Shown here piece after piece: positions 1 to 30,946 of a stretch of DNA of 32,000 bases (its first letter is position 1; each line of letters starts with the position of its first letter). The notes beneath the pieces are model-generated. The model worked only from the letters and a program-made list of their open reading frames with translations. It made no database searches and was not told the origin of the DNA. The stretch lies in NCBI GenBank assembly GCA_021650915.1, contig CP091279.1:3510001-3542000 (forward strand). The letters run 5' to 3'. A program made the translations under genes and the position numbers. The stretch is from Candidatus Brocadia sp. (GTDB taxonomy: Bacteria; Planctomycetota; Brocadiia; Brocadiales; Brocadiaceae).

Positions 1-778
1 CCCCGATCACCTACCATGGTCACCCCGGTGCACCCAAACCGTTCTGCCGTCTTCTTTACCTGAGACTCAAAGGTCTTTGGGTCCTGAGTATTGCCCCGAA
101 AAACCTCCGTGGACACCGGCTCCCCAAATTCATCACACAGCATACCAATCACGATCTGCTTCTTCCCCTTCTTGCCGTCACGATTATACCCGTACTCACC
201 AAAACGATTCTGCTCCCCTCCAGATAACTGCTCGTCACGTCATACAGAAACAGCTTCGGCTTCTTGCCTGCCCGTCTTGCCTCAAACAACGTTCGCTCTA
301 TCCTCGCCTGTTGCTCCGATAACCACGATAAATTATCGTAGAGATCATTCTCGTCGAACCCCCGCTTCATACCCAGCACATCACCCGCTGCATGCACATG
401 CGCCAGCCGCACCGCCGAGAGTCTTGACCCCTGATTTATCACCCGCGCCATTACCTGCCACAGCGCCAGTCTCCCTTGAAAATCCTTCCCCAACGCCTCC
501 TCTATCCCTAATTCCTTTGCCACCTGGTACACACTCCAGATCGCCCCCACGGACATCCCCTCCTGGAGTTCCACCGATCCTGACAATGCCCCCAATGCAG
601 TGAGATCCTCTTTATGGCTGAGGGCAAGCTTTATCGCTTCTATCTCCCGCGATGTGCAGTTCGACAGATTTGCAATGGTACGCTTCCTGACCTTTCCGCC
701 TTCCCGATACGATTCCCGCAAAAGAATGGAGCGATAGATTTTTTTGCCGGATTTTGATTTGTTTTCCACAATATGCAT
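1..778 (-). pseudogene. IS1634-family (IS4-like DDE) transposase, N-terminal part; frameshifted, continues beyond the left edge of the window
   Basis: ORF 149..778 reads MHIVENKSKSGKKIYRSILLRESYREGGKVRKRT...LFLYDVTSSYLEG and then terminates after junk. Reading one frame over from the G4 run (plus-strand CCCC at 215-218) gives GEQNRFGEYGYNRDGKKGKKQIVIGMLCDEFGEPVSTEVFRGNTQDPKTFESQVKKTAERFGCTGVTMVGDRG, open to position 1. This is the expected continuation for this transposase family (recognised from memory). Confidence 0.85.
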
Positions 779-1442: not shown

Positions 1443-2576
1443 TTACTTAATGACTACCGGCACCGGTGCGTTTCTGTTTGAGGCAGAACCGTCTCCCAGT
1501 TGGCCGTTCTTGTTTAATCCCCATGCCCACACCGTGCCATCAGATCTCAGGGCAAGGCTGTGTTGTCCGCCGCAGGAAACAGAAGTAACATGATCAAGGT
1601 TTTTTACGAGCGTGGGGAGCCCTCTACCCATGTTCGTTGCATCACCCAATTGACCCAAATTATTGCTGCCCCACGCCCAGACGGTTCCATCCGACTTCAG
1701 AGCAAGGGTATGATCTCCACCTCCGTCAGTTGCAATGACATTTTTCAGTCCTTCCACCGGACATGGGGTGCTCCTGCTGTCAGCCGTAGCGTCTCCCAAC
1801 TGACCATACTGGTTAAATCCCCACGTCAGAACAACGCCGTTATTCTTCAGGGCAATGCTGTGATCTCCTCCGCAATTGATACCAATAATGCCTTCAAGTC
1901 CTCTGAGTGAAACAGGGATTACCCGGTCAGCGGTGGAAGCGTCTCCCACCTGACCGTATTGGTTCGATCCCCAGGCCAAAACCGAACCGTCTGCCTTACG
2001 GGCAAGACTATGATACCCTCCAACGGCAAGGGAAGTAACGTCCTCCATCGCCCTTGTCGGCACGGGCGTTTGTCTATCGGTTGTGGTCCCGTCCCCTAAT
2101 TGCCCATATTCATTTCTTCCCCACGCCCAAACGGTTCCATCTGACTTCAAGACGATACTATGCTGCCCCTTTGTGGCAATTGCCGTAATACCACGAAGAT
2201 CAGTCACCGGTACCGGTGTATTCCTGCTTCTTGTTGTGCCATCCCCTAATTGCCCTGCCCAGTTGGCTCCCCACGCCCAGACCGTGCCGTCCCTCTTCAG
2301 CGCCAAACTGTGCCACACGCCTCCGGCAATTGCAGCGACATTATCCAAACCCTTGACCGGTGCTGGTGTTTTCCTGTCGCTATTGGTTCCGTCACCAAGC
2401 TGCCCATGAACATTTAATCCCCATGCCCACACCGTGCCGTCTGATCGCAAAGCCAGGCTATGAAAACCTCCGCAGGATATCTGTATGATAACCGCTGCGA
2501 AGGCAGCTTGGCCAGAAAGCAAGCACAGGACAAACGAGATTACCAGCCCGTATGCCATGCTATGTCTGGTATGCAT
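1443..2576 (-). CDS. Secreted RCC1-repeat (seven-bladed beta-propeller) protein
   Basis: N-terminal signal peptide (MAYGLVISFVLCLLSGQAAFA). It is followed by seven repeats of about 50 aa of the type GGxHSLALxSDGTVWAWGxNxxGQLGDGT. The repeat periodicity is also visible at the DNA level. Confidence 0.9.
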   Translation of the reverse strand: MHTRHSMAYGLVISFVLCLLSGQAAFAAVIIQISCGGFHSLALRSDGTVWAWGLNVHGQLGDGTNSDRKTPAPVKGLDNVAAIAGGVWHSLALKRDGTVWAWGANWAGQLGDGTTRSRNTPVPVTDLRGITAIATKGQHSIVLKSDGTVWAWGRNEYGQLGDGTTTDRQTPVPTRAMEDVTSLAVGGYHSLARKADGSVLAWGSNQYGQVGDASTADRVIPVSLRGLEGIIGINCGGDHSIALKNNGVVLTWGFNQYGQLGDATADSRSTPCPVEGLKNVIATDGGGDHTLALKSDGTVWAWGSNNLGQLGDATNMGRGLPTLVKNLDHVTSVSCGGQHSLALRSDGTVWAWGLNKNGQLGDGSASNRNAPVPVVIK

Positions 2577-2744: not shown

Positions 2745-5312
2745 CTAAGGGAGGATTGGTTGCGGCTGCGCTGCGGTATGGATCATTATGGCCAGTGAAT
2801 TCATACCATGTAACGGCAGGCTGATAGAAAACGCTGTTCCGGTCCCTTCTTTGCTTTCCAGATAAATAGCTCCCTCATGATCCTGTATTATCCGATACAC
2901 GATGGCAAGGCCGAGCCCTGTCCCCTTCTCTTTACTCGTAAAAAAGGGCTCAAAGATGTGTTTCATTTTTTCTCCAGGGATCCCCATGCCGTTATCAGAG
3001 ACCTCTATTACAAAATAGTGCTTGTTGGATTGATCTCCCTGGTGGGGAGAAAATGAAAAGAATATACTGCTCGGATGCTCCTTTGCCCTGGTTTTGAACT
3101 CAGAAAGCGTGTCTATAATACGGGTATTCACCTGAATGCGGCCGTTTTTTGGTAGTGCGTCCAGGCTATTTTGCATAACATTGAGGAGCACTTGCTTTAT
3201 CTTGTCCTCATCCGCAATGATCTGACATTGTTTCTCTTCCAGCGACGCAGTTATTTCAACCCCTTTATCCGCAGCGGTATGCCTGAGCAAGTTTACGGTG
3301 TCTGTGACACAACAGCAGGGGTCTATATATCGTATGACGGGCTGAGAGGGTTTTGCCAGATTGAGCATGTCTTCAATAATTCTGTTGATCCTTCCGATTT
3401 CTTTTAAGGCAATCTCACGGAAATTGGTGTGAAACTCCACATCGTCTTTTTTGTAGGGAAGGAGCTGAAAATAGGTGTTTATGGCGACGAGTGGGTTTTT
3501 TATTTCATGGGCGATATTCGAGGCAAGGGTGCCAAGGTATGCAAGCCGGTCGGCATGCTGCTTTTCTGCCTGGAGCAATTTCAGTTCTGTCAGGTCAGTC
3601 AGGATCATGAGTGCGCCAAGTTTTTCTCCTGCTGCGGTTTTCAACTGAGTGATCGTCACGCCGCACGGGACTTTTTTCCTGTCTCTCTCGATGAATGTTT
3701 CGAGGTCACGATAGTCTACGTTATTCTTAAGGCTGTGTCTCAGTAAATTGTGAGTATCCTTATTGAGGGCGCTGAGCACAGATCCATCCGAGCCGGTATT
3801 TTCCAGGCCAAGGATCATTTTTGCCTCATGATTGATCATCGTGACTTCTTCGTGAATATCCACGGCGATCACCCCGCATTTTAAACTCTGGAGGATATTG
3901 TCCCGGTAGGTCTTTGCTTCATCCAATCCTGCATAGAGACGGGCATTGTGGACAGCCATTGCCAACTGGCCGGAAAACGCAAGAAACATCTGAATATCTT
4001 CCTGGGTAAAAACCTTTTTGTTCACTTTCCTTCCCAGAAGAATTATCCCGAAGAGGTCTTTTCCCATATGGACGGGCAGGCAGCTATCGACATCCAGGGA
4101 TGCCAGCGTTTCCTCCAGCAACCGGTCATATTCATTGTGCCGAAAACGGGTCAATTGCTCTTTGGAAAGAACGGTTCGATTCTTACAGAGCCAGGAGACC
4201 ACGGCATCCTGTCCGTTAAGGAATATCGTGTCAGGGGCAGTGATGTTGAGGGATGCCTGCATATGGTACCGCTTGGTTTTTTCATTTCGTATCAATATTC
4301 CTATTTTCTCAATGCCTATAGAGTCATATAAATATTGAATGGCAAAATGGAGCATTCTGTTTAAATCGTGGATTGATGAAAACATTACCGTAGAATCGCT
4401 CAGTATTTTCGGATAGCTATACTTGGTGCGGAATAAACTATTCTCAATAAAATGATGAATCAATTCTCTGGCAGGCACAAAGGTTAAGACCATTACGATA
4501 ATAGAAACTACGCTTGTGATGGTCTCCGTATACTCTGATACCGGAAGTATCCTGCTCATGATGAATCCGACCGTAAAATAGATGATAGTGAGAGTAACGG
4601 ACAGAGCAGCGTAAACGGTACTGCGCTTGATTACTACGCTGATGTCCATGAGGTGGTATTTTGCAATAGCGTAAGCAACGGCAATCGGAATGGGAACAGC
4701 TACCAGGGGCACGAACGCCTCAACTTGCCACACACCGAACATTGGCAAGAGGAAATTGGTGATAATACCAAGAAACACAGACACCGCCACCCCGAAGTAC
4801 AAATACTGAACCTGCAATCTCTTGATGCCATAAAAATGCGTGCTTTTCCGGTAAAGGGAATATAAGGAGTACGCCATACAGGCGATAAAATAAAACCAAA
4901 ACAGGTGGAATAGTGAACTGTATGCAGCCTGGGGAAATTGCTCTACAAAGTACACAGATTTGACAATAGAGGAAGAAAGGAACAGAAGAAGGATGCTTAT
5001 GGCAGAAAAGGATATATTTAAATACCGATCAACCGGTCTTTTCGCCTGGTCAGGGAAGACAGATGAAAAAGAGAAAAAGGCGGGAGGGATGAAGGCCGCC
5101 GCACAGAAAACCAACCGAAGTCTGAAAGTAGCCAATTCGGGATTTGTTGTCCGAAGTAAAAAAAAGATAAAGAATACCCATACTGCGATAATTTGTGCAA
5201 AGAGACAAAATCTCTTGTTGATGACGTTTGCCGGATTTTTAAAGAGTACGAGGATTCCCAGTCCGGCAATCAGCAGGAAGATAAAGATAAATACTGACTG
5301 ACTTGCAAGCAT
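2745..5312 (-). CDS. Membrane sensor histidine kinase (about 9 TM helices, GAF-like, PAS, HisKA, HATPase_c)
   Basis: The hydrophobic N-terminal third contains about 9 predicted helices. PAS-like core CGVIAVDIHEEVTMINHEAKMILGL. H-box LASNIAHEIKNPL. ATPase boxes DNGMGI and GTGLGLAIV. The ATG lies 11 nt downstream of the KAS stop codon. Confidence 0.9.
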   Translation of the reverse strand: MLASQSVFIFIFLLIAGLGILVLFKNPANVINKRFCLFAQIIAVWVFFIFFLLRTTNPELATFRLRLVFCAAAFIPPAFFSFSSVFPDQAKRPVDRYLNISFSAISILLLFLSSSIVKSVYFVEQFPQAAYSSLFHLFWFYFIACMAYSLYSLYRKSTHFYGIKRLQVQYLYFGVAVSVFLGIITNFLLPMFGVWQVEAFVPLVAVPIPIAVAYAIAKYHLMDISVVIKRSTVYAALSVTLTIIYFTVGFIMSRILPVSEYTETITSVVSIIVMVLTFVPARELIHHFIENSLFRTKYSYPKILSDSTVMFSSIHDLNRMLHFAIQYLYDSIGIEKIGILIRNEKTKRYHMQASLNITAPDTIFLNGQDAVVSWLCKNRTVLSKEQLTRFRHNEYDRLLEETLASLDVDSCLPVHMGKDLFGIILLGRKVNKKVFTQEDIQMFLAFSGQLAMAVHNARLYAGLDEAKTYRDNILQSLKCGVIAVDIHEEVTMINHEAKMILGLENTGSDGSVLSALNKDTHNLLRHSLKNNVDYRDLETFIERDRKKVPCGVTITQLKTAAGEKLGALMILTDLTELKLLQAEKQHADRLAYLGTLASNIAHEIKNPLVAINTYFQLLPYKKDDVEFHTNFREIALKEIGRINRIIEDMLNLAKPSQPVIRYIDPCCCVTDTVNLLRHTAADKGVEITASLEEKQCQIIADEDKIKQVLLNVMQNSLDALPKNGRIQVNTRIIDTLSEFKTRAKEHPSSIFFSFSPHQGDQSNKHYFVIEVSDNGMGIPGEKMKHIFEPFFTSKEKGTGLGLAIVYRIIQDHEGAIYLESKEGTGTAFSISLPLHGMNSLAIMIHTAAQPQPILP

Positions 5313-5323
5313 AAGCTACATTC

Positions 5324-6568
5324 CTAAGGATATTTCCTTAGCACAAGAACGGCGTGTGTTCCGCCAACACTATGGCTGTTTATGAGCGCTGTATCCATGG
5401 AGAAACGCCTGGCATGGAGAGGGACATAATCAAGATCACAGAGAGGATCAGGCGTATCAAGATTAATGGTAGGCGTAACAAAGCCGTTCCTAAGACAGAG
5501 GCTCGTTGCAACGACCTGAAAGCCACCGCCGGCTGCGTAAGCCTGGCCAGTCATGGACTTAATTGAACTGATGGGAATTTTATACGCATGAGTTCCAAAG
5601 AATGTTTTAAATGCGTTTGTTTCCGATATATCATAGGTGGGAATGGCATTCCCATGAGCGCAGATATAGTCAATTACTTCTTTTTTCATCCTGCCAGAGA
5701 CCAGTGCATGTTCCAATGCAGAGACCAGCGCCTGTCCGCTGACGTCAACCCGAACAACGTCCAGTGCATCACAGGTAGATGCATACGATACAATCTCTGC
5801 ATAGATTGTTGCCCCTCTGTCTCGCGCGTGATTCAGTTCCTCGATCACCACAGCAGCGCCACCTTCGCTAATCACCATGCCATCACGATCCTTATCGTAT
5901 GGCCGCGAGGCCTTTTCAGGCGCTTCATTCCTTTTCGAGAGAATTCCCAAAGCACAGAAGGTGGACATAGCAAACGGGAAGATGGGAGCATCAGAGCTTC
6001 CCACAATGGCCACATCTACCTCTCCCCGTTTTACCATGGTAAAGCCCCAGTTTACCACTTCAAGCCCGGTTGAGCATCCCGATGACAGGGTTGAATTCGG
6101 TCCGGAAATTCTTAATTCCGAACATATGTAACCCGTTGTTACATGAGGTGTAAACTCAGGGGCGGTAAAACGGTTAACCGCCTTTGGGCCGAATTCTAAG
6201 AATCTCCTGTGCTGACCTTCATAGATATCGTTTTCTGCCCCGATCGTTGTTCCGAAACAGACACCGCACCGGGAGCGATTCTCATTGTTGAGGTTAATGC
6301 CGGAATCTGCAACCGCCATCTTTGATGCGGCAACACCAAAGTGGGTAAACCTTCCACTTCTTTTGACCAGTTTTGGATCAAAGTAATCGCAGGGATTAAA
6401 GTCTTTTACTTCGCCCGCAATCTGAGTGCTGAAAGGGGATGGATCAAAGGAGGCAATTTTTTTGATACCTGATTGCCCATTGATAAGCGCATTCCAGTAT
6501 GCGTCTTTCCCGTTGCCATTCGGGGCTAATATTCCCAAGCCGGTGATAACAACCCTCCTGGTCAGCAT
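5324..6568 (-). CDS. FabF-like beta-ketoacyl synthase (KAS II / type II PKS KS-alpha-like) with an atypical active site
   Basis: RRVVITGLGILAPNGNG at the N-terminus. Active-site Cys165 in SSGCSTGLE (codon 6074-6076). His305 in CAHGNAIPTYD (5654-5656). The second catalytic His position reads SIKSMTGQAYAAGG, i.e. Gln342 (codon CAG at 5543-5545). The start overlaps the upstream rSAM stop (ATGCTGA). Confidence 0.9.
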   Translation of the reverse strand: MLTRRVVITGLGILAPNGNGKDAYWNALINGQSGIKKIASFDPSPFSTQIAGEVKDFNPCDYFDPKLVKRSGRFTHFGVAASKMAVADSGINLNNENRSRCGVCFGTTIGAENDIYEGQHRRFLEFGPKAVNRFTAPEFTPHVTTGYICSELRISGPNSTLSSGCSTGLEVVNWGFTMVKRGEVDVAIVGSSDAPIFPFAMSTFCALGILSKRNEAPEKASRPYDKDRDGMVISEGGAAVVIEELNHARDRGATIYAEIVSYASTCDALDVVRVDVSGQALVSALEHALVSGRMKKEVIDYICAHGNAIPTYDISETNAFKTFFGTHAYKIPISSIKSMTGQAYAAGGGFQVVATSLCLRNGFVTPTINLDTPDPLCDLDYVPLHARRFSMDTALINSHSVGGTHAVLVLRKYP

Positions 6569-8388
6569 AAAACTTTTTCTCTCTCAGAAACATCACGCTC
6601 TGACGAAGAGAAATTTCTTTCTGCCAGGTTGCGGCTGTATGCATTTATTTTCTGGTAAACGTCTTTCAGAAAGCGGTAATCTGTCGTTAATAAAGCCAAA
6701 TCACTCTTCATCTTAAATTCCTCCAATCCTCTCTGGCCTGTAAAACCAGCGCTCCTTGCCGCAAGGCAATGTTCATCGGAGACATTTACGGTATAGCCCA
6801 TCTCTCTGACCTTTTTCTCCATGAGTCCGGACAATGCAAGCATGTCCAGGAACTTCAGTCCATGCAAGGAGATGTCCAGCTCAGGCCAGGTACTTGGGTC
6901 CTTGGTCAGTTCATACTCATAACGCAAGATCGTCTGAAAATAATCTTCCGGCAGATTAAACCCAAATCTTTCCGGCTCTGTTTGCCATGCCGTACCAGGC
7001 AGAGGTGCGGCCGGGGTTATTAAAACCGAATCCGGTTTGCAATGTTCATTTTTTAATCTCTGGAGTAAAGAGAGGTTCTCTTCCAAAATCTGCCCATGTG
7101 TTATACCACTTCCCGGAGGCAATGGGCAAGGATAAATCATACTTATTCCTACATCAAGATGTCGCCCTTCGTTGGAAGCGGCTTGTTTTATGGCCTGAAT
7201 CGTAAAATAAAAATCTTCCAGGGAATTGCCTTTTTGCATACTACGGGAAAGGATATCGTTGTTTGCAACCTCAACGCCGAGAAAAACCGCCCTTAGTCCG
7301 GAACGTATTATTTTCTCATAGGCTGCTACCAGTTCCGCGGCTCTCTCCCCTGCCTTGGTCTCTGCCCGGATGAACATTGAGTACTCAATATGTAAACCAT
7401 TCGATAATAAAGCATCAGCGATCCGTCTGCTCAGCGAAACAGGCGTTGAAGACCCTGCAAAACGAAAGAGTCCAATGCCCGTTTCCCTTATCGTATATTT
7501 TATTTCCTGAATCGTCAGGGCAACGTCTCTTGCCTGATACCTGCCGGTAATATTTGGATGGGTGCAAAAATTACACCTTCCGTAATAGCAACCGGAAGAT
7601 TCATTTATAACCGCGATGTTTACCTTCCCATCCTCCTTTTCATACAAGGGAAAAGATTTTGAGTTTAAAGGAAGTCTCTTAACCGGTGTATTTTTTATGA
7701 TACCGTTGGCATCTCTATATATCAGGTTACTGATCTTACCCGTTTCTGCAAGTTCAACAACCTTCTTTATTATCGTGGATTTTGTGCCTCCCAGGGCATA
7801 GGTTTCCCGCACGATGGTAAGAATCTGCACCAGGGTCACCTCGCCCTCGGCATCAATGCAAAAATCAAAAGGGCTTCTTTCCAGTGCATGCCTTTTAAAT
7901 TGATTAACCTGTGGCCCACCGGCAATGACCAGGGTCTCCGGGCTGTGTTCCTTTACCTTTTGCGCAAGCTTTTCAGAATAGCGAAATCTGTCGCCGAGCC
8001 AGGTCTTTATTCCGAGCACTTTAACACGATTGTTACGCATCTCGCGAGCTAGAGAGACAAGGTACCTTTCCATTTTTTCCTGGATAATGCCATCAAGGGT
8101 ATCCTGGAGCAGGTTCCACTCTTTCCTGAACGACGCCGTATCGTCTCCCGATTTTGCACCAAAGATGCGGAGAGAGAGTTCTGACAGTCGCGGGGCAAGG
8201 TCGTTTTTGGTAAAGATGGAATAGAATTCAATTTTAGCCGGGTCTTCAATAGCAACCGTAAAACCTGCATCCCTGCATGCCCGGGAGAGTATTCCAATAC
8301 CATTTTCCCGGAAACAATCACTCACGGAATAAGCCTTTCCCATAAAGGAATTCCAAAGCATAAGATCTATCCCATCCGTTGTTTGCAT
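6562..8388 (-). CDS. Radical SAM enzyme with N-terminal B12-binding-domain-like Rossmann region and a long C-terminal extension
   Basis: The cluster motif SGCYYGRCNFCTH (Cys267/272/275, nt 7564-7590) follows a flavodoxin-like segment (VKVLGIKTW...ETLVIAGGPQV). The overall layout matches class B type rSAM enzymes. AGGAG lies 7-11 nt upstream of the ATG. Confidence 0.85.
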   Translation of the reverse strand: MQTTDGIDLMLWNSFMGKAYSVSDCFRENGIGILSRACRDAGFTVAIEDPAKIEFYSIFTKNDLAPRLSELSLRIFGAKSGDDTASFRKEWNLLQDTLDGIIQEKMERYLVSLAREMRNNRVKVLGIKTWLGDRFRYSEKLAQKVKEHSPETLVIAGGPQVNQFKRHALERSPFDFCIDAEGEVTLVQILTIVRETYALGGTKSTIIKKVVELAETGKISNLIYRDANGIIKNTPVKRLPLNSKSFPLYEKEDGKVNIAVINESSGCYYGRCNFCTHPNITGRYQARDVALTIQEIKYTIRETGIGLFRFAGSSTPVSLSRRIADALLSNGLHIEYSMFIRAETKAGERAAELVAAYEKIIRSGLRAVFLGVEVANNDILSRSMQKGNSLEDFYFTIQAIKQAASNEGRHLDVGISMIYPCPLPPGSGITHGQILEENLSLLQRLKNEHCKPDSVLITPAAPLPGTAWQTEPERFGFNLPEDYFQTILRYEYELTKDPSTWPELDISLHGLKFLDMLALSGLMEKKVREMGYTVNVSDEHCLAARSAGFTGQRGLEEFKMKSDLALLTTDYRFLKDVYQKINAYSRNLAERNFSSSERDVSEREKVLC

Positions 8389-8451: not shown

Positions 8452-9831
8452 TTAGTTTTCGGTGTCCGTGATCCCGTATTTCTGCATCTTATAGTTAAAA
8501 ATCCGGCGGGTGGTTCCAAGAAGTTTCGCTGCCTTTGATTTCACGCCACCAGATTGCTGAATGGCCTGTTCAATAAGCCGCTTTTCTACGCGTGCCACTT
8601 CGTCTTCCAAAGAGATTAGTCCCGTTTTATCCGATTTCACCTGCTGCAGATTCAGCGAGGAAACACCGGTGATCTCAACTGGCAGGTGTTTGTGAGTAAG
8701 AGCACCCTCGTTGCCGTAGAGCGCAACAGTTCTCTCCATGATATTCTTCAACTCCCTTACGTTTCCCGGCCAGTGATATCTTAATAACGCATCCATAGCT
8801 TCTTTTGAAATGCATTCCATTTTTGCGTGGCACTCTTTCCGGAAAACGTTAAAGAAGTGTTCCGCTAATTGTGGAATATCCTCGTATCGCTCACGGAGAG
8901 GCGGAAGATGGATTGGGACAACATTGATACGATAATAGAGATCTTCACGGAATCGGCTCTCCCGGATCATGGATTCCAAATCTTTATTTGTTGCGGCAAT
9001 AATGCGCACATCTGTCTTGATGACGGAATGACTCCCTAAACGAGAGAATTCTTTTTCCTGCAGAATACGCAGGAGCTTTGCCTGCAATGGAAGGTTTATC
9101 TCGCTAATTTCATCAAGAAATATGGTGCCGCCTTCGGCTATTTCAAACTTGCCGAGCCGTCTCTCATAGGCGCCGGTAAAAGATCCCTTCTCATGACCAA
9201 AAAGCTCCGCCTCGAGTAAGTCGCCTGCCAGGTTTGGACAACTTACCACGAGAAATGGGTTTTCCCGTCTGGCGCTGTAAAAATGGATTGCGCGTGCGAC
9301 TAATTCCTTGCCCGTTCCACTCTCCCCTCGCAAAAGAACGGTTGAATCAACCCGGGAGACCCTGGCGATGATATCCAGTATTTCCTCCATGATCCGGCTT
9401 CGTCCCTGGATGAGTTTGTCAAGTGAAGGGTATTTGTATTCCGAACGAAGATAACGCACTTCACGGCTGAGGTTTCGGAACTGCAATGCCTTTTCAATGG
9501 TTATCTTGATCTCCTCGACCCCGAAGGGCTTGACAATATAATCTAATGCGCCCAGCTTCATTGCATCGACACTAGCCTTAACGTCATTTACTGCAGTTAA
9601 CATGACGACTCCAAACGCATGATCGAATGGTTGTAACTTTCGCAGTAATTCCAAACCATTCAGCTCATGCATTTTTATATCGAGAAGGATAAGATCCACG
9701 TGTTCTTTTTCCAGTATCTTTAAGGCCTCTTTTCCACTGAGCGTGCTGAGTACCCGATAACTATCCTTTAAGATAAGCCGGAGGGATTCAACAACACTGG
9801 ATTCATCATCTACGAGCAATATTGTTTTCAT
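8452..9831 (-). CDS. NtrC-family sigma-54-dependent response regulator (REC, AAA+ activator, Fis-type HTH)
   Basis: REC motifs: ILLVDDE, DLILLDIKM, YIVKPF. AAA+ motifs: GESGTGKELVARAIH, GSFTGA loop, TIFLDEI. HTH: AAKLLGTTRRIFNYKMQKYGI. Confidence 0.95.
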   Translation of the reverse strand: MKTILLVDDESSVVESLRLILKDSYRVLSTLSGKEALKILEKEHVDLILLDIKMHELNGLELLRKLQPFDHAFGVVMLTAVNDVKASVDAMKLGALDYIVKPFGVEEIKITIEKALQFRNLSREVRYLRSEYKYPSLDKLIQGRSRIMEEILDIIARVSRVDSTVLLRGESGTGKELVARAIHFYSARRENPFLVVSCPNLAGDLLEAELFGHEKGSFTGAYERRLGKFEIAEGGTIFLDEISEINLPLQAKLLRILQEKEFSRLGSHSVIKTDVRIIAATNKDLESMIRESRFREDLYYRINVVPIHLPPLRERYEDIPQLAEHFFNVFRKECHAKMECISKEAMDALLRYHWPGNVRELKNIMERTVALYGNEGALTHKHLPVEITGVSSLNLQQVKSDKTGLISLEDEVARVEKRLIEQAIQQSGGVKSKAAKLLGTTRRIFNYKMQKYGITDTEN

Positions 9832-10081: not shown

Positions 10082-11536
10082 TCAACCTGGCTGAGCAACA
10101 AGCATTTTGCCCAACTCCGTACCAATACCGGATGGGGATGTTCGACTTTCCAACTGCTTGAGTTTCTTCTCAAACTCTGCAACGGTACTTAAACTCGATT
10201 GTAATTTCCTGATTTCACTTATGTCTGAAAATATCATAACCGCCCCTATTTCGCCGCTGGTATCGAAAAAAGAAGTACTTACAGAATATGTTAAATGAGT
10301 GGTCGGATGCACCACTTCGCGCATCTCGTATGTTTTTTTGTCTTTTAGCGTTCTTAAAATAATATCAGTAAACAGAGAACCAATGTGCTTTACATCTTTT
10401 CCAAGGATATCGTGAGAACTCATATCAAGCATCTTTGCGGCATTTTTGTTAAAGGCATTAATCCTGCCATTGCTGTTTATAGCGATTACACCGCACGGGA
10501 TATTTTCTAACAGATTTTCGTTCAGAATTTTCCGATGATTTGCCTCCCGGTACAGAAAGGCATTCTCGACCGCCATACCTATATACCCTGCCAGCATGGA
10601 GAGCAATTCGATATCTTCATCAAAGAAGACCTTTCCGGTAATTTTGTTCCCTAAAGTGATTACACTGCTGAGGCTTCCGTAAGCCAAGACGGGGATGCAT
10701 AAGTGGGCTTGTAGCAGATTGATTTCCCGCTGTATATCTATGGCTTCACGGATACTTAAGGTATTACATGCAACCTTCTTTTCTATAACGTCTTTTGTTA
10801 ATATTTGATGGTTTTTCGTTAACCAGAGCATGATGCCATGATTATTATTAAAACAGATTTTTTTGGCAACGGACTCGTCCAGGCCTAAATACCGATACGG
10901 TCGGCTAACCCCTTCCTTTTTGTAGACCAGGGTAAAAACTACCTTTCCCACACCAAATATTTCTGACATTGCTTCAACGGTCAGGTCTGCAAGTTTTCCG
11001 AGATCCTGGACTCGCGCCAATACCTTTGAAAATTTTTGGAAGACCTCCTTATATTTAAGATTAATCTCTCCTGCGTTTGGCTGCCTGTTCATTGCCGGTT
11101 CTGACATACCAAGACCTTGCTTTGCCGGTTGTAAGTTTTTTATGTGAGACTGCATAAAACCCAGTTCTTTTTTCAACGATTGCTTTTCCAATGCCCGCTT
11201 TGATGCATGTTCTATAGCATCGTTCGTTAATGGTTTCTCAAGCAGCTCATACGTACCTATCCTTAAGGCATCCCCGGACATTGCTGGCTGAGACTCCGGG
11301 ATTATCAGCACGATGGTTGGATCTATATTGACTTGCCTGAATTTCTCCAGGAGCCTGGTTGCCCCTTCGTTATGTAATAGGGAATCGATAAAAGTTATAT
11401 CAACGTCCTTGTTAAACAAGATTTCAAGCGCATCATCAGGAGTCTTTGCGTAGTGAATTACATAGTCTCCATTTAAAGATTTTTTAAAAAGGTTGGTAAC
11501 AGACGTATCGTCCGAGACTATCAAAATAGAGTACAT
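10082..11536 (-). CDS. Receiver-GAF-PAS signalling protein with no recognisable output domain
   Basis: REC motifs: ILIVSDD, ITFIDSLL, LLEKPL. These are followed by a coiled linker, a GAF-like region (LCIPVLAYGSLSSVITLGNK) and a PAS core (IPCGVIAINSNGRINAFNKNAAKMLDM) resembling that of the kinase at 2745-5312. The protein ends after an S-helix-like EIRKLQ segment with no H-box. AGGAG lies upstream of the ATG. Confidence 0.75.
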   Translation of the reverse strand: MYSILIVSDDTSVTNLFKKSLNGDYVIHYAKTPDDALEILFNKDVDITFIDSLLHNEGATRLLEKFRQVNIDPTIVLIIPESQPAMSGDALRIGTYELLEKPLTNDAIEHASKRALEKQSLKKELGFMQSHIKNLQPAKQGLGMSEPAMNRQPNAGEINLKYKEVFQKFSKVLARVQDLGKLADLTVEAMSEIFGVGKVVFTLVYKKEGVSRPYRYLGLDESVAKKICFNNNHGIMLWLTKNHQILTKDVIEKKVACNTLSIREAIDIQREINLLQAHLCIPVLAYGSLSSVITLGNKITGKVFFDEDIELLSMLAGYIGMAVENAFLYREANHRKILNENLLENIPCGVIAINSNGRINAFNKNAAKMLDMSSHDILGKDVKHIGSLFTDIILRTLKDKKTYEMREVVHPTTHLTYSVSTSFFDTSGEIGAVMIFSDISEIRKLQSSLSTVAEFEKKLKQLESRTSPSGIGTELGKMLVAQPG

Positions 11537-12145: not shown

Positions 12146-13180
12146 ATGGAACAAATCACGAAATTGGCAAGCATTTTGGTAATCGACGACGACCTTGGCG
12201 TTAGGGAATCATTAAAGATCATACTAAGGGACAAATATCAGGTTTCCACTACATCAAATATTGATGAAGCCCTTGCCAGTATGACTATCGCAAGGCCAGA
12301 AATAATCTTCCTTGATATAAAGATGCCCAAAGCAAACGGTCTGGATTTTCTCAAGCAGTTGCGCTCCACGAACACGAATATTCCCGTCATCATGATTACG
12401 GCACATCCTTCCATTGAAAACACCATCATCTCCTTACGAAATGGCGCATTTGATTTTATTGTGAAGCCTTTCCACCCGGCAGAAATCCTTACGGTAGCTG
12501 AAAAAGCATTGCGCCATAGCAACGAACAGTGGGAAAAAGACATGCTGGTGGATAATCTGAGGCGGGCGGCACAACAAAATTTTCTCTCAACTACCGAAGC
12601 GCTTTTGCAAGCCATAGATGCGAAGGACGCTTATACTGCCGGACACTCGAAACGGGTGTCGGAACTTGCCGCTTTTGTCGCAAAAGAATTGGGCAAAAAC
12701 GAGTCAGAAATTGAAGTCCTGCGATATGGCGCCTATCTCCATGATATCGGGAAAATCGGGGTAGGCGATCTCGTGTTGACAAAACCAAGTTACCTTACTC
12801 AGGAAGAATTTGGTTTAATGAAACGTCATTCCGAGATTGGTTATAAAATTATTGCGCCAATAAAATTTATGGAAAAATGTCTGCCTATCGTGCGTCATCA
12901 TCACGAATGGTACAATGGCAAAGGTTATCCGGATGGTTTGCAGGGATCTGACATTCCCTTTGAAGCCAGCATTCTTTCAATCGTAGATGCGTATGATGCC
13001 ATCACCACGGACAGGCATTATCATAAAAAATATTCTCATCAAAAAGCCTGTGAAATTATTACCCAGGGAATAGATACCCAATTTACGCCAACCCTGACGG
13101 AAAAGGTACTCGCCATTATTAATCGATATCATGAAGAATGCATACCGGGTGAACGGACAGAATACTCTCTAACACGCTGA
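12146..13180 (+). CDS. Response regulator with HD-GYP domain (c-di-GMP phosphodiesterase, RpfG type)
   Basis: REC motifs: ILVIDDD, IIFLDIKMP, FIVKPF. HD-GYP motifs: HSKRVSELA, YLHDIGKIGV, HHEWYNGKGYPDGL. Confidence 0.9.
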   Translation: MEQITKLASILVIDDDLGVRESLKIILRDKYQVSTTSNIDEALASMTIARPEIIFLDIKMPKANGLDFLKQLRSTNTNIPVIMITAHPSIENTIISLRNGAFDFIVKPFHPAEILTVAEKALRHSNEQWEKDMLVDNLRRAAQQNFLSTTEALLQAIDAKDAYTAGHSKRVSELAAFVAKELGKNESEIEVLRYGAYLHDIGKIGVGDLVLTKPSYLTQEEFGLMKRHSEIGYKIIAPIKFMEKCLPIVRHHHEWYNGKGYPDGLQGSDIPFEASILSIVDAYDAITTDRHYHKKYSHQKACEIITQGIDTQFTPTLTEKVLAIINRYHEECIPGERTEYSLTR

Positions 13181-28684: not shown

Positions 28685-28759
28685 GTAACACTTTAGTTCT
28701 TTGAAAAATTAACAAGCGATTTTGCAAGCAAACCCAGAAGGCGTTTTCACCATAAGGGC
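28685..28759. repeat. Left terminal inverted repeat of the IS66-like element
   Basis: GTAACACTTTAGTTCTTTGAAAAATTAACAAGCGATTTTGCAAGCAAACCCAGAAGGCGTTTTCACCATAAGGGC. Confidence 0.85.
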
Positions 28760-30078
28760 ATTTTTTGCGCTAGCCAGAAGATTTTCCACTGGATTGATTC
28801 TTTGTAATTCAGCAGAACGAAGCAGAGACATAAGGATGGCCTGTGTCTTAGCGCCACCTCAGAGCGGTTCTGCTGTGAGACCTTTCTGGTCAATACTGGC
28901 TTTCGCATCTGTTGCTCAGCATGGTTGTTATAGGGACTGACATCCTCATGTTCCAGGAACGTAAAGAGTTCCTGTTTATGGCGGTTCAGGCGTTTGGTCA
29001 ATCTTTGTGCATCTTTATCCTGGCAGGGTGTTGCCAAAAACTGTTCAAGCCTGCAATACAGTCTATTTTTGAGCCTGAGAAAGCATGCCGGGTTTATCTG
29101 GTGCTTTTTCTCGGATAGCCGGATGGCATCCCTGAGTAATCGGGAGAGTTTTCTCCTGAAACTTTTCCATGAGACAGAATGGTTGTAGGTGTCTACTTTC
29201 ACGAGTTCCGTAAAGAGATGATAGAAACACCGCTGCTTTGCCAGTGCGCTTGTCTTGTTATAAGCGCCCCAGAAGTCGCAGATCAGGATGCCCTTGAAGA
29301 GTCTGCCTAAGAACCTTTTTATGACAGGCGACCCCCGATTCCGTGTTATAAGGTAGTAGCAGAGGGTTTTGGTGGTAAAACACCATAACCAATGGGTTTT
29401 TCCATTCAACCGCCACCCGGTTTCATCTGCGTGCAAGACGGCGCTGGTAGAGACCTTTTGTCCAATATCGTTATACTGTGGTTCCAGGAGTGTTGCAAGA
29501 GCCTTCCAGGCCTGGGTTAAACCACCGGCGCTTACGTGAAGATTGAAAAATACGGAAACCATCTTTACAAGGTTGTTTACACTGATACCGACTACGTAAT
29601 GAAGCCAGGCGGTAAAGACAACGAGGCGCAATCCGAGTCGGGCGTTTGGCAAGGCATCGGTGAGCGCGGGCTGAACGATCTTTTTGCAACAAGCACACCA
29701 GTAGCCATGAACCGTATGTTCCGTCACGACAGGGTCGACCCGGGGGATATCCTCGATGTATCGCTTATACGTTCTCACCGGCTTTTGTAATGACTGCTGG
29801 CAGTCAGGGCACCTCTCCAGGGTATGTGTCTTATAGGCAGTTATGGTTTCCGGTCGTCTTCGGGAAACCCCCTTATGTCCTGGTTTTCTGCCACAAGGTC
29901 GTTTTCTCTTTTTACGGGTAGGCTTGAGATAAGGTGGCGTCATGCCCGAAGGGGTAGTTGGGCTTGGTTTATCGCAGAGTCGGTCATACTTCTCTGCCTT
30001 CCCGGCCAGTATCAGGATGACTTGAATCGCATCCTCTCTGTTCATCTCCAGGATGGCTCGGGCTTCATCCCTGGTCAT
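28747..30078 (-). CDS. IS66-family DDE transposase (TnpC-like)
   Basis: Zinc-finger pairs CPDCQQSL...YWCACCKK, and the DDE region LHADETGWRLNGKTHWLWCFTT typical of IS66 TnpC. The start is taken at MTRDEARAIL (Met32 of the track ORF), which overlaps the upstream stop by 14 nt. Confidence 0.85.
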   Translation of the reverse strand: MTRDEARAILEMNREDAIQVILILAGKAEKYDRLCDKPSPTTPSGMTPPYLKPTRKKRKRPCGRKPGHKGVSRRRPETITAYKTHTLERCPDCQQSLQKPVRTYKRYIEDIPRVDPVVTEHTVHGYWCACCKKIVQPALTDALPNARLGLRLVVFTAWLHYVVGISVNNLVKMVSVFFNLHVSAGGLTQAWKALATLLEPQYNDIGQKVSTSAVLHADETGWRLNGKTHWLWCFTTKTLCYYLITRNRGSPVIKRFLGRLFKGILICDFWGAYNKTSALAKQRCFYHLFTELVKVDTYNHSVSWKSFRRKLSRLLRDAIRLSEKKHQINPACFLRLKNRLYCRLEQFLATPCQDKDAQRLTKRLNRHKQELFTFLEHEDVSPYNNHAEQQMRKPVLTRKVSQQNRSEVALRHRPSLCLCFVLLNYKESIQWKIFWLAQKMPLW

Positions 30079-30946
30079 GAGCAAGAAGCCTCCGGAAATT
30101 TTTCTCAAGAGGATACAGGTAGAGTTCCTTCGTCTGGCCATGATACCGATAGGTATTGCCCCGTTTTGCACTGCCTTTGGTTTTTCCTACACGGAGCCAA
30201 TTAGCTGCCTGATAGCAAGTGCCTTGAAATCGCGCGGTATCAACAAAGGTCTCCGCCAAATACACGGGATGTCCGTAGACAGCTTCCCAGTCATCTGACA
30301 AACGCTTGAGGGCAAGGGATAATACCTTGGATGCAAGGTGTTTGACCGTAACCCAGGGGGGAATGAGGAATCGCACGTTACTGGCAATTAAATGCAAGTG
30401 GGTGCGTTTGGTGGTCTCATCCCATCCGATGAAACGGTCACGGTCTTTGACCTTCCATGCTGCGCTTGCCCATCCAAGACAGGCAACGACCTGATTGCCG
30501 ATATGTACGATGTGCCTGACGTGTTCTCCAACAAGCCGGGGACATCCGAGGTAGTGGTAGTGATAGAGGAGATAACCCCAGAGGTAACTCTCTTGAGGGT
30601 CTTTTACCACCTGGATCGTCGGGATTTCATACCCGGTGATAGTGCCTCCCAGTGTGCTTTTGACAAAAAGGGGTATCTGATCAAATATCTTAGGTTTCAG
30701 ATTGTTTTTTGGTCGTATGCGGCCTGGAAGCGCTACCAGGCCCTGCTCTTCCAATCGCAGAAGGAGGTCTCGTGCCGCGTATTCTTTCAGCTTGCCATTG
30801 GGCTGCACCCAGTTCCAACTTTTGCAAAGTTCACGGGAAATATAACTCCGCCCTTTGAGAAAATAACTATCAATGAGCGCCTTGATAAAGGCTATATCGT
30901 CTGTATGCAGTTTCCGTGAACGGTATTGGAATAGTATTGGCTTCAT
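30065..30946 (-). CDS. DUF4338-like protein (the domain found in Druantia DruA), carried inside the IS
   Basis: YLWGYLLYHYHYLGCPRLVGEHVRHIV...VVACLGWASAAWKVKDRDRFIGW...NVRFLIPPWVTVKHLASKVLSLALKRLSDDWEAVYGHPVYLAETFVDTARFQGTCYQAANW matches my recollection of DUF4338 conserved blocks. Not verified by HMM. Confidence 0.7.
   Translation of the reverse strand: MKPILFQYRSRKLHTDDIAFIKALIDSYFLKGRSYISRELCKSWNWVQPNGKLKEYAARDLLLRLEEQGLVALPGRIRPKNNLKPKIFDQIPLFVKSTLGGTITGYEIPTIQVVKDPQESYLWGYLLYHYHYLGCPRLVGEHVRHIVHIGNQVVACLGWASAAWKVKDRDRFIGWDETTKRTHLHLIASNVRFLIPPWVTVKHLASKVLSLALKRLSDDWEAVYGHPVYLAETFVDTARFQGTCYQAANWLRVGKTKGSAKRGNTYRYHGQTKELYLYPLEKNFRRLLAHDQG

Follow-up and report, generated by a model that had tools for sequence, protein, structure and literature searches.

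A clade of FabF-fold ketosynthases with a Cys-His-Gln active site is encoded next to HisKA_7TM sensor kinases in anammox bacteria and other lineages

We analysed a window of 32,000 nucleotides from Candidatus Brocadia sp. (assembly GCA_021650915.1, contig CP091279.1, positions 3,510,001 to 3,542,000), which encodes a FabF-fold ketosynthase (KS) with the catalytic residues Cys165, His305 and Gln342. Elongating ketosynthases are textbook Cys-His-His enzymes. The window KS has Gln at the position of the second His, and it belongs to a clade of such KSs whose genes lie next to genes for sensor histidine kinases of the HisKA_7TM type. This KS-kinase pairing is conserved across phyla and is highly non-random. 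In full-text searches of the literature we found no description of Cys-His-Gln ketosynthases, of a ligand for HisKA_7TM, or of a KS-kinase or autoinducer module. Where HisKA_7TM is mentioned, it is simply as a sensor domain whose input is not known (PMC5847659).

Translation of the open reading frame (ORF) on the minus strand placed Cys165, His305 and Gln342 at the codons given in the initial annotation, and the E. coli FabF motifs used there for comparison (ACTSG, HGTST and KSMTGHLLGAAG) match the MG1655 fabF sequence. The window KS contains the domains PF00109 (148.5 bits, 3e-43) and PF02801 (83.8 bits, 1e-23). When the PDB was searched with phmmer, its residues 3-412 aligned with Bacillus subtilis FabF (E 6e-101). 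In these alignments KSMTGQ of the window KS lies over KSMTGH of the B. subtilis and Synechocystis FabFs (beta-ketoacyl-ACP synthase II, KAS II), with no gap nearby. The AlphaFold2 (AF2) model of the KS agrees in fold, with a predicted local distance difference test score (pLDDT) of 86 and a Foldseek TM of 0.91 to B. subtilis FabF. By sequence alignment, Gln342 was confirmed at the site of FabF His340. The FabF motif NSFGFGG reads NSHSVGG in the window KS, which gives His399 and Val401, and Lys337 is kept.

The Gln342 codon, CAG, is one third-base change away from His. The identical protein was found on 58 independently assembled contigs and in 83 index blocks, and three related contigs with 99.7-99.9% DNA identity leave the KS translation unchanged. 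Because dozens of independent contigs carry the same protein, the codon is not an assembly error, a possibility that the initial annotation had left to be checked. At the level of the sequence, the Cys-His-Gln active site is real and is neither a sequencing artefact nor a chance one. The closest named homologues of the window KS are from Ca. Brocadia, Jettenia and Kuenenia.

To define the signature of the family, we compared 52 family members with 76 ordinary FabFs, using E. coli mature numbering for FabF. The ordinary FabFs (39-44% identity) were by-catch of a contig scan with the unspecific peptides CDLDYVP[NH] and D[ILV][ASC]ETN[AG]FK. Three kinase-linked members found by that scan, L024 (Cys-His-Gln), L006 and L027, were set aside. 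The site of Gln342 is 94% Gln, 4% His and 2% Asn in the family, whereas all ordinary FabFs have His (76/76). Gln is therefore not common in ordinary FabFs, and the reading of the substitution as unusual stands. Thr334 of FabF corresponds to Ile336, with Ile in 98% of the family vs Thr in 91% of ordinary FabFs. Gln351 was present in 52/52 of the family set, which had been selected on this residue so that 100% is a defining criterion there, and in 120/120 of the closest homologues of an independent list; 97% of ordinary FabFs have Glu349. His399 was found in 88% of the family vs 0% of ordinary FabFs, which have F or L there. The position of the gating Phe400 is V, F, L or M in the family. Other skewed sites, from FabF to family, are Asn140 to His142, Ala162 to Gly164, Leu341 to Pro/Ala343 and Gly343 to Ala345. 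Cys165, His305 and Lys337 are invariant in the family.

Wider samples gave a similar picture at the 342 site. Of the 120 database homologues nearest to the window KS (identity down to 47%), nearly all have Gln there and a minority have His. A search of a representative library was dominated by multi-KS polyketide synthases (PKSs) and KS-KS fusions, and the signature census was taken from single-domain matches only. Among these, representatives at 50% identity clustering mostly have Gln at the 342 site. Several have Asn (CHINQH-type: P0143, P0174 and P0250), and others have His together with Gln351. At the clade signature sites (Ile/Val336, Gln/Asn/His342, Gln351 and usually His399) the window KS reads I, Q, Q and H. 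A neighbour-joining tree built without the signature columns placed 52 of the 58 kinase-linked KSs in one pure clade apart from FabF, which supplies the phylogenetic placement proposed in the initial annotation. The residues, the clade membership, the coupled substitutions and the gene linkage described below are direct observations. The aligned sequences indicate that Gln342 is a clade-wide trait and part of a coordinated change, not an isolated mutation.

Some sequences depart from this pattern. Five representatives (P0139, P0179, P0186, P0262 and P0249) have Phe or Cys at the first His or Met or Ala at the second-His site, with Gln351 kept. Four kinase-linked KSs outside the main clade (L131, L142, L146 and L151) have the FabF-type His340, Glu349, Phe398 and Phe400 but Ile at the Thr334 position, and they may be an evolutionary intermediate stage. 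The representative search also returned KS-KS tandems of ~800-870 aa (P0121, P0122, P0125, P0128 and others) in which the first domain is canonical and the second has no triad. These KS-chain-length factor (CLF) fusions surfaced because the scores of their domains are summed, and they have no bearing on the clade described here.

For the gene context, metagenome contigs were scanned with a KS-only, family-specific peptide, YxIP[IV]SSIKS. The scan gave at least 599 matches, of which 80 loci were kept, and neighbour genes were labelled by phmmer and jackhmmer. The loci contained 70 distinct family KS genes; the 69 with at least 400 nt of downstream sequence form the denominator. A HisKA_7TM kinase (7TM kinase) lies directly downstream on the same strand in 54/69, with a gap of -115 to +55 nt. 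A B12 radical-SAM (rSAM) gene is instead the next one downstream in 10/69; the kinase then follows within 6.5 kb in six of these, and the other four contigs end too soon. The remaining 5/69 were scored as neither, and two of them (L124 and L165) have the kinase 1-3 kb downstream. By comparison, none of the 76 ordinary FabFs has a downstream HisKA_7TM kinase (0/76; Fisher 1.7e-31 vs family), and L024, the sole Cys-His-Gln KS hidden in the control set, is kinase-linked. The KS is often followed by two 7TM kinases, another kinase and a hybrid kinase/regulator.

An rSAM gene is directly upstream of the KS in 16 of the 44 loci with room upstream, and in the other 28/44 no rSAM adjoins the KS and kinase. 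The rSAM is therefore accessory and the KS-kinase pair is the core. The same layout occurs with His-variant KSs (L145, L170 and L173) and with an Asn-variant KS (L172). Outside anammox bacteria, the clade and its kinase linkage were found in Methylomirabilota, Gemmatimonadales, Aureabacteria, Thermodesulfobacteriota and many soil and sediment metagenomes. The window has the layout of the clade, with the 7TM kinase directly downstream of the KS on the same strand.

As shown in Table 1, the order on the minus strand of the window is sigma54 regulator, rSAM1, KS and 7TM kinase, and the KS gene is translationally coupled to the rSAM1 gene that it overlaps.

Table 1. Positions of the ketosynthase, its key codons and the neighbouring regulatory and radical-SAM genes in the window
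Feature	Position	Strand	Remarks
FabF-fold ketosynthase (KS), 414 aa, intact ORF	5324..6568	-	Cys165-His305-Gln342; signature Ile336, Gln342, Gln351, His399, Val401
Cys165 nucleophile codon TGC	6074..6076	-	within SSGCSTG
His305 codon CAT (= FabF His303)	5654..5656	-	within CAHGNAIPTYD
Gln342 codon CAG (= FabF His340 position)	5543..5545	-	within SIKSMTGQAYAAGG
Gln351 codon CAG, replaces FabF Glu349 (FabB Glu342)	5516..5518	-	
His399 codon CAT, replaces FabF Phe398 (FabB Phe390)	5372..5374	-	
Val401 codon GTT, at FabF gating Phe400 position	5366..5368	-	
Sensor histidine kinase, 855 aa: N-terminal HisKA_7TM, PAS, HisKA, HATPase_c	2745..5312	-	start 11 nt past KS stop
B12-binding radical-SAM protein rSAM1, 608 aa	6562..8388	-	stop overlaps KS start by 7 nt (ATGCTGA)
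NtrC-type sigma54-dependent response regulator (REC, AAA+, HTH_8)	8452..9831	-	63 nt upstream of rSAM1
REC-GAF-PAS signalling protein	10082..11536	-	upstream of sigma54 regulator, conserved there in anammox loci
REC + HD-GYP response regulator, RpfG-like	12146..13180	+ (divergent)	HDIGK 199, HHE 252, GYP 260, all intact

The best NCBIfam match of the 7TM kinase is AtoS, over the PAS-HisKA part. Apparent truncation of the kinase in two related contigs (L166 and L168) is a gene-calling artefact, and the reading frame is intact. rSAM1 has weak matches to TIGR04072 ("lipid biosynthesis B12/rSAM"), PhpK, BchE and TokK. Its cluster motif is CX4CX2C (CYYGRCNFC, residue 267) instead of the canonical CX3CX2C, which is probably why its Pfam Radical_SAM score is below threshold. 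CX4CX2C (CYYG[KR]C[NKS]FC) is common to all 14 anammox-type rSAM1 orthologues (including L001, L090, L098, L106-108, L110, L116, L122, L132, L135 and L145), whereas non-anammox homologues have CX3CX2C (CFCCCYFC, CPNHCSYC). The Kuenenia counterpart of the REC-GAF-PAS protein is longer and has an extra HATPase domain. In the window we found no acyl carrier protein (ACP)-like ORF, no ketoreductase (KR), dehydratase (DH) or enoylreductase (ER) gene, and no fab-gene context around the KS, whose neighbours are the rSAM, the kinase and the regulators. The window also contained no tRNA or Rfam family, and a generic promoter/terminator scan of it was uninformative.

Directly downstream of the 7TM kinase lies a gene for an RCC1-like protein of 377 aa with seven RCC1 repeats (beta-propeller; 1443-2576, minus strand), followed by a GNAT acetyltransferase gene (896-1378). 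No link of either to the module was seen in other loci. Mobile-element remnants are an IS1634-family transposase fragment (149-778, minus strand) and an IS66-family transposase (28747-30171, minus strand). The remainder of the window consists of housekeeping genes and insertion-sequence remnants.

Several other genes recur with the module. An outer-membrane channel for hydrophobic compounds (FadL/Toluene_X) recurs in 10 loci, and a REC-HD-GYP regulator in 14 loci, non-anammox ones included. In one subclade (8 loci), a membrane methyltransferase of the ICMT/PEMT type occurs with three rSAM genes, a sigma54 factor and an HTH-cupin regulator. The L172 locus, from a distant lineage with the Asn variant, has a sigma54 factor, FadL/Toluene_X, rSAM, KS, 7TM kinase, PAS kinase, sigma54 regulator and REC-HD-GYP, which repeats the parts list of Kuenenia with added genes. 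Clustering of recurrent neighbours across the loci gave no ACP, KR, DH, ER or acyltransferase family. A further observation concerns the subclade of L099, L101, L112, L123, L134 and L149 (also L089, L091 and L165), in which the KS motif is NSFGQGG and His399 is missing. Its cluster runs sigma54 factor, HTH-cupin regulator, sigma54 regulator, KS, rSAM2, rSAM1, ICMT/PEMT methyltransferase, rSAM2, short 7TM protein and 7TM kinase, and it looks like a more elaborate biosynthetic form of the module.

Compared with FabF/KAS II (e.g. 4LS5, E. coli FabF), the window KS has the same two-domain thiolase fold (PF00109 + PF02801), a length of ~410 aa and a dimer-type architecture. The identity is 38-42% over the full length, and the Cys nucleophile, the first His and Lys335 are conserved. 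However, His340, Glu349, Phe398, Thr334 and Phe400 of FabF are replaced by Gln, Gln, His, Ile and Val, and the window KS has no acpP or fab neighbours and is linked to a 7TM kinase and an rSAM. The window KS does not conform to FabF in the Lys335/Glu349 charge relay or in the GFGG loop with the gating Phe400. It scored 423.6 bits with the fabF equivalog TIGR03150, below the cutoff of 493.75, and 403.7 bits with the subfamily model NF005589, above the cutoff of 387. All databases that name the protein call it beta-ketoacyl-ACP synthase II, because this looser subfamily model accepts it.

From its motifs, the initial annotation had suggested that the protein looks closer to KS-alpha of type II PKS than to housekeeping FabF, and this did not hold. 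The FabFs in the PDB scored 341-300 bits with phmmer, whereas actinorhodin KS-alpha (1tqy_A) scored 281.6 bits and was only at rank 32 in Foldseek for the KS model. The window KS resembles the actinorhodin KS-alpha/CLF system (1TQY) as a stand-alone KS of similar size, with a GC(S/T)TG context that is loosely alike, but it has no second KS, CLF partner, ACP or cyclases nearby. We therefore rejected an identity as KS-alpha. An identity as CLF or KSQ was also rejected because Cys165 is retained; in CLF it is the Cys that is swapped for Gln, whereas here Gln sits at the second-His site.

A nearer parallel at the third catalytic position is found in KAS III and chalcone synthase. These enzymes have a Cys-His-Asn triad in which Asn is an N-H donor. 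The clade likewise has an amide side chain there, which in some members is even Asn, and the same role is proposed for it, that of an N-H donor to the carbonyl of the extender thioester (PMC10054515). KAS III and chalcone synthase belong to another branch of the thiolase superfamily, of which the window KS is not a member at the sequence level, whereas the amide of the window clade arose in a KAS II scaffold that keeps the Lys.

In elongating KSs with the Cys-His-His triad, both His catalyse decarboxylative enolate attack (PMC9006962). According to Table 2 of PMC2649909, FabB Glu342 (FabF Glu349) tunes the electronic state of the His ring. FabB Phe390 (FabF Phe398) and Pro272 form the pocket for the methyl group of thiolactomycin, the carbonyl of which is bound by both His (PMC10054515). 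We propose that the window KS is a catalytically competent condensing enzyme of the KAS II fold in which the decarboxylation/extender pocket of FabF would have been rebuilt (His340 to Gln, or Asn or His in some members, Glu349 to Gln, Phe398 to His and Thr334 to Ile) around the retained Cys165, His305 and Lys337. Cys165 would load an acyl chain, probably from the housekeeping acyl-ACP pool because there is no ACP in the window. The amide N-H of Gln342 may then do the work of the His340 N-H and donate the hydrogen bond by which the extender-thioester enolate is stabilised.

By analogy with Asn in KAS III and chalcone synthase, the Gln342 amide can plausibly stand in for His340. Within a single clade and operon type this site may be Gln, Asn or His, which fits a hydrogen-bond-donor role and supports as plausible the suggestion in the initial annotation that a Gln could sustain catalysis. 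The Gln may also go with a changed extender or chemistry, as was suggested there too. The replacement of Glu349 by Gln351 fits the loss of the imidazole that Glu served. His399 would be placed in the extender pocket near Gln342 because FabB Phe390 (FabF Phe398) lines that pocket. This bears on the possibility, named at the outset, that a His from elsewhere fills the place of the lost His340. Gln342 itself aligns to the His340 site, as had been claimed. The family-specific His399, predicted in the malonyl pocket, leaves a substitute His partly in play.

The reading we rank first, although we hold it tentatively, is that the KS may be the synthase of a fatty-acyl-derived small molecule that is sensed by the adjacent 7TM kinase. 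It ranks first because the KS is encoded beside a multi-transmembrane kinase, the module lacks a carrier protein and reductive enzymes, and its companions are HD-GYP and sigma54 regulators and a porin for hydrophobic compounds. The enzyme would act outside bulk fatty-acid or ladderane synthesis. Its product might be a beta-keto acid, a methyl ketone or a tailored derivative, which the rSAM would modify in some lineages. The 7TM kinase would sense this product and relay the signal to sigma54-dependent transcription and cyclic di-GMP (c-di-GMP) turnover. The result would be a circuit like those of diffusible signal factor (DSF), 3-hydroxypalmitic acid methyl ester (3-OH-PAME) or cholera autoinducer-1 (CAI-1), in which the synthase is of a new type. 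What we infer is that the KS is catalytically competent, what it makes, and that the kinase senses this product.

Such modules offer a close comparison. The CqsA/CqsS system (CAI-1) feeds the sigma54 activator LuxO. In RpfF/RpfC/RpfG, where RpfG is an HD-GYP protein, the signal derives from fatty-acid synthesis and RpfC binds RpfF, and PhcB/PhcS/PhcR uses methyl 3-hydroxy fatty acid signals (PMC7912708). As in the DSF, Phc and CAI-1 modules, an enzyme that would tap fatty-acid metabolism is encoded next to a multi-transmembrane sensor kinase. Our module also includes a REC-HD-GYP regulator, comparable to RpfG, and a sigma54 regulator of the NtrC type, comparable to LuxO. It differs in that the candidate synthase has a KAS II fold and is not a crotonase, a methyltransferase or a pyridoxal phosphate enzyme (RpfF, PhcB and CqsA), in that the sensor is HisKA_7TM, and in that the signal is putative.

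Several points weigh against the signal-synthase reading. The gate position of the window KS is Val401, and the Phe to Ala change at the gate of FabF nearly abolished condensation (PMC9006962), so that competence for classical condensation is not assured. No exporter or product-releasing thioesterase was identified. Matches to the sigma54 promoter TGGCAC-N5-TTGCW in the window numbered 14 vs 16 expected, and none was convincing upstream of rSAM1. Given a shallow alignment (10 close homologues), AF2 modelled the 7TM domain poorly (pLDDT 61). Tandem kinases at many loci mean that signalling is possibly more complex than one synthase-receptor pair. Finally, gene adjacency would be just as expected if the kinase controlled the enzyme, as in des-desK-desR, and adjacency alone does not separate the signal synthase from a lipid-tailoring operon under two-component control.

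In such an operon the kinase would sense membrane state or an external cue, the sigma54 regulator would switch on the rSAM and KS, and fatty acids would be remodelled (e.g. by elongation and rSAM methylation or cyclisation), so that the KS is the output of the circuit and not the source of a signal. Analogues are des-desK-desR in Bacillus and AtoS/AtoC, which controls the thiolase operon atoDAEB. The KS does share one operon with a sigma54 regulator and a B12 rSAM of a type proposed to act on lipids, the best NCBIfam match of the kinase is AtoS, and its multi-transmembrane domain is plausible as a sensor of membrane state. Additional KS genes point the same way. In L170, KS fragments, a 427-aa KS and an 88-aa ACP are encoded directly upstream of the rSAM1-KS-kinase block (5164-8123), and in L145 a triad-less KS and a Cys-His-His KS form a pair there (2806-5298). 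However, 28/44 loci lack an adjacent rSAM and the recurrent neighbours include no ACP, KR, DH, ER or acyltransferase, and a KS acting by itself would be redundant with FabF. A gene that is only a target would not usually stand first across phyla, with a gap to the kinase gene that is near zero or an overlap. The HD-GYP regulator and the FadL channel suggest signalling and the uptake of a hydrophobic ligand, and the rebuilt extender pocket suggests chemistry other than chain elongation. We regard lipid tailoring as the main rival, though somewhat unlikely. We consider it improbable that the protein, instead of being a biosynthetic enzyme, assists the kinase in regulation or sensing, as PII does for NtrB and RpfF for RpfC. 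In that role it would bind or be acylated by acyl- or malonyl-thioesters, report on the status of fatty-acid metabolism and modulate the kinase/phosphatase by contact. Such a role would agree with the tight, translational-type linkage between the two genes in 54/69 loci, with the loss in many members of the His340 and Glu349 machinery and of the canonical gate Phe, and with the precedent of synthase-sensor contact in RpfC-RpfF (PMC7912708). Against it, the invariance of Cys165, His305 and Lys337 and a third triad position that is always a hydrogen-bond donor (Gln/Asn/His) argue for retained catalysis. The rSAM, methyltransferase and FadL genes at many loci imply a small-molecule product, and none of 150 representatives was found to combine the family signature with a fused kinase.

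A dedicated enzyme of ladderane lipids working with the B12 radical-SAM protein was considered because the source is a Brocadia-type anammox genome, divergent FabF paralogues and B12-rSAM genes of anammox bacteria have been proposed for ladderane synthesis (PMC2649909; bioRxiv 10.64898/2026.05.19.726425), and the unusual CX4CX2C is common to the anammox rSAM1 orthologues. The Cluster I proteins amxFabF2 and amxFabFmut are FabF paralogues in the same kind of organism and are likewise encoded near B12 radical-SAM genes. According to bioRxiv 10.64898/2026.05.19.726425, amxFabF2 keeps Cys-His-His, amxFabFmut lacks the triad, and the two form a KS/CLF-like heterodimer; Figure 1d there shows them encoded with amxACP and amxFabZ. 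In contrast, the window KS is a single gene with a Cys-His-Gln triad in a different neighbourhood, without the amxACP, amxFabZ and PDH neighbours that define Cluster I, and its identity as amxFabF2 or amxFabFmut was rejected. Its identity to E. coli FabF, and likewise to the other KSs beside the module in two anammox loci, is only 38-40%. Of the two KSs upstream of the module in L145, the one with the canonical triad shares ~39% identity with the window KS and the triad-less one 30%. This pair is at most a putative amxFabF2/amxFabFmut, as the extra KS and ACP genes of L145 and L170 are at most putative ladderane Cluster I genes. Because the KS clade and its kinase linkage extend far outside anammox bacteria, the ladderane reading is largely refuted, and we give it very little weight. 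Least probable of all is an ordinary redundant FabF isozyme in which the change of His340 to Gln is neutral, mildly deleterious or an assembly error. The protein does pass NF005589 and carries the database name of beta-ketoacyl-ACP synthase II. But Gln occurs in 0/76 ordinary FabFs vs 94% of the clade, with three co-varying substitutions, the score is below the equivalog cutoff, and the identical protein is present in many independent assemblies. The absence of fab-gene context and the highly non-random kinase linkage also stand against it. This conservation and context refute a neutral variant.

With its second His exchanged for Gln or Asn, and the relay Glu and a malonyl-pocket residue changed as well, this large clade is a natural experiment on the catalysis of decarboxylative Claisen condensation, and hundreds of its proteins are mislabelled FabF in databases. 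HisKA_7TM, a ligand-orphan sensor domain, gains its first concrete ligand candidate from the near-obligate pairing with a KS. For anammox biology, the rSAM-KS pair is now separated from the easily confused ladderane Cluster I genes. In anammox bacteria and many uncultured lineages, the pairing suggests a circuit for lipid-based signalling or lipid homeostasis that has gone unrecognised. Should the signalling hypothesis prove right, the entire module could amount to more than a variant KS. It is possible, although we would not presume it, that Cys-His-Gln KSs are a new class of autoinducer synthase, with HisKA_7TM kinases as the receptors and a spread over many uncultured phyla, anammox bacteria included. 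B12-rSAM tailoring would occur in anammox bacteria and some other lineages, and the output would pass through sigma54 activators and HD-GYP c-di-GMP phosphodiesterases. If true, this would be a previously unrecognised system of cell-cell signalling.

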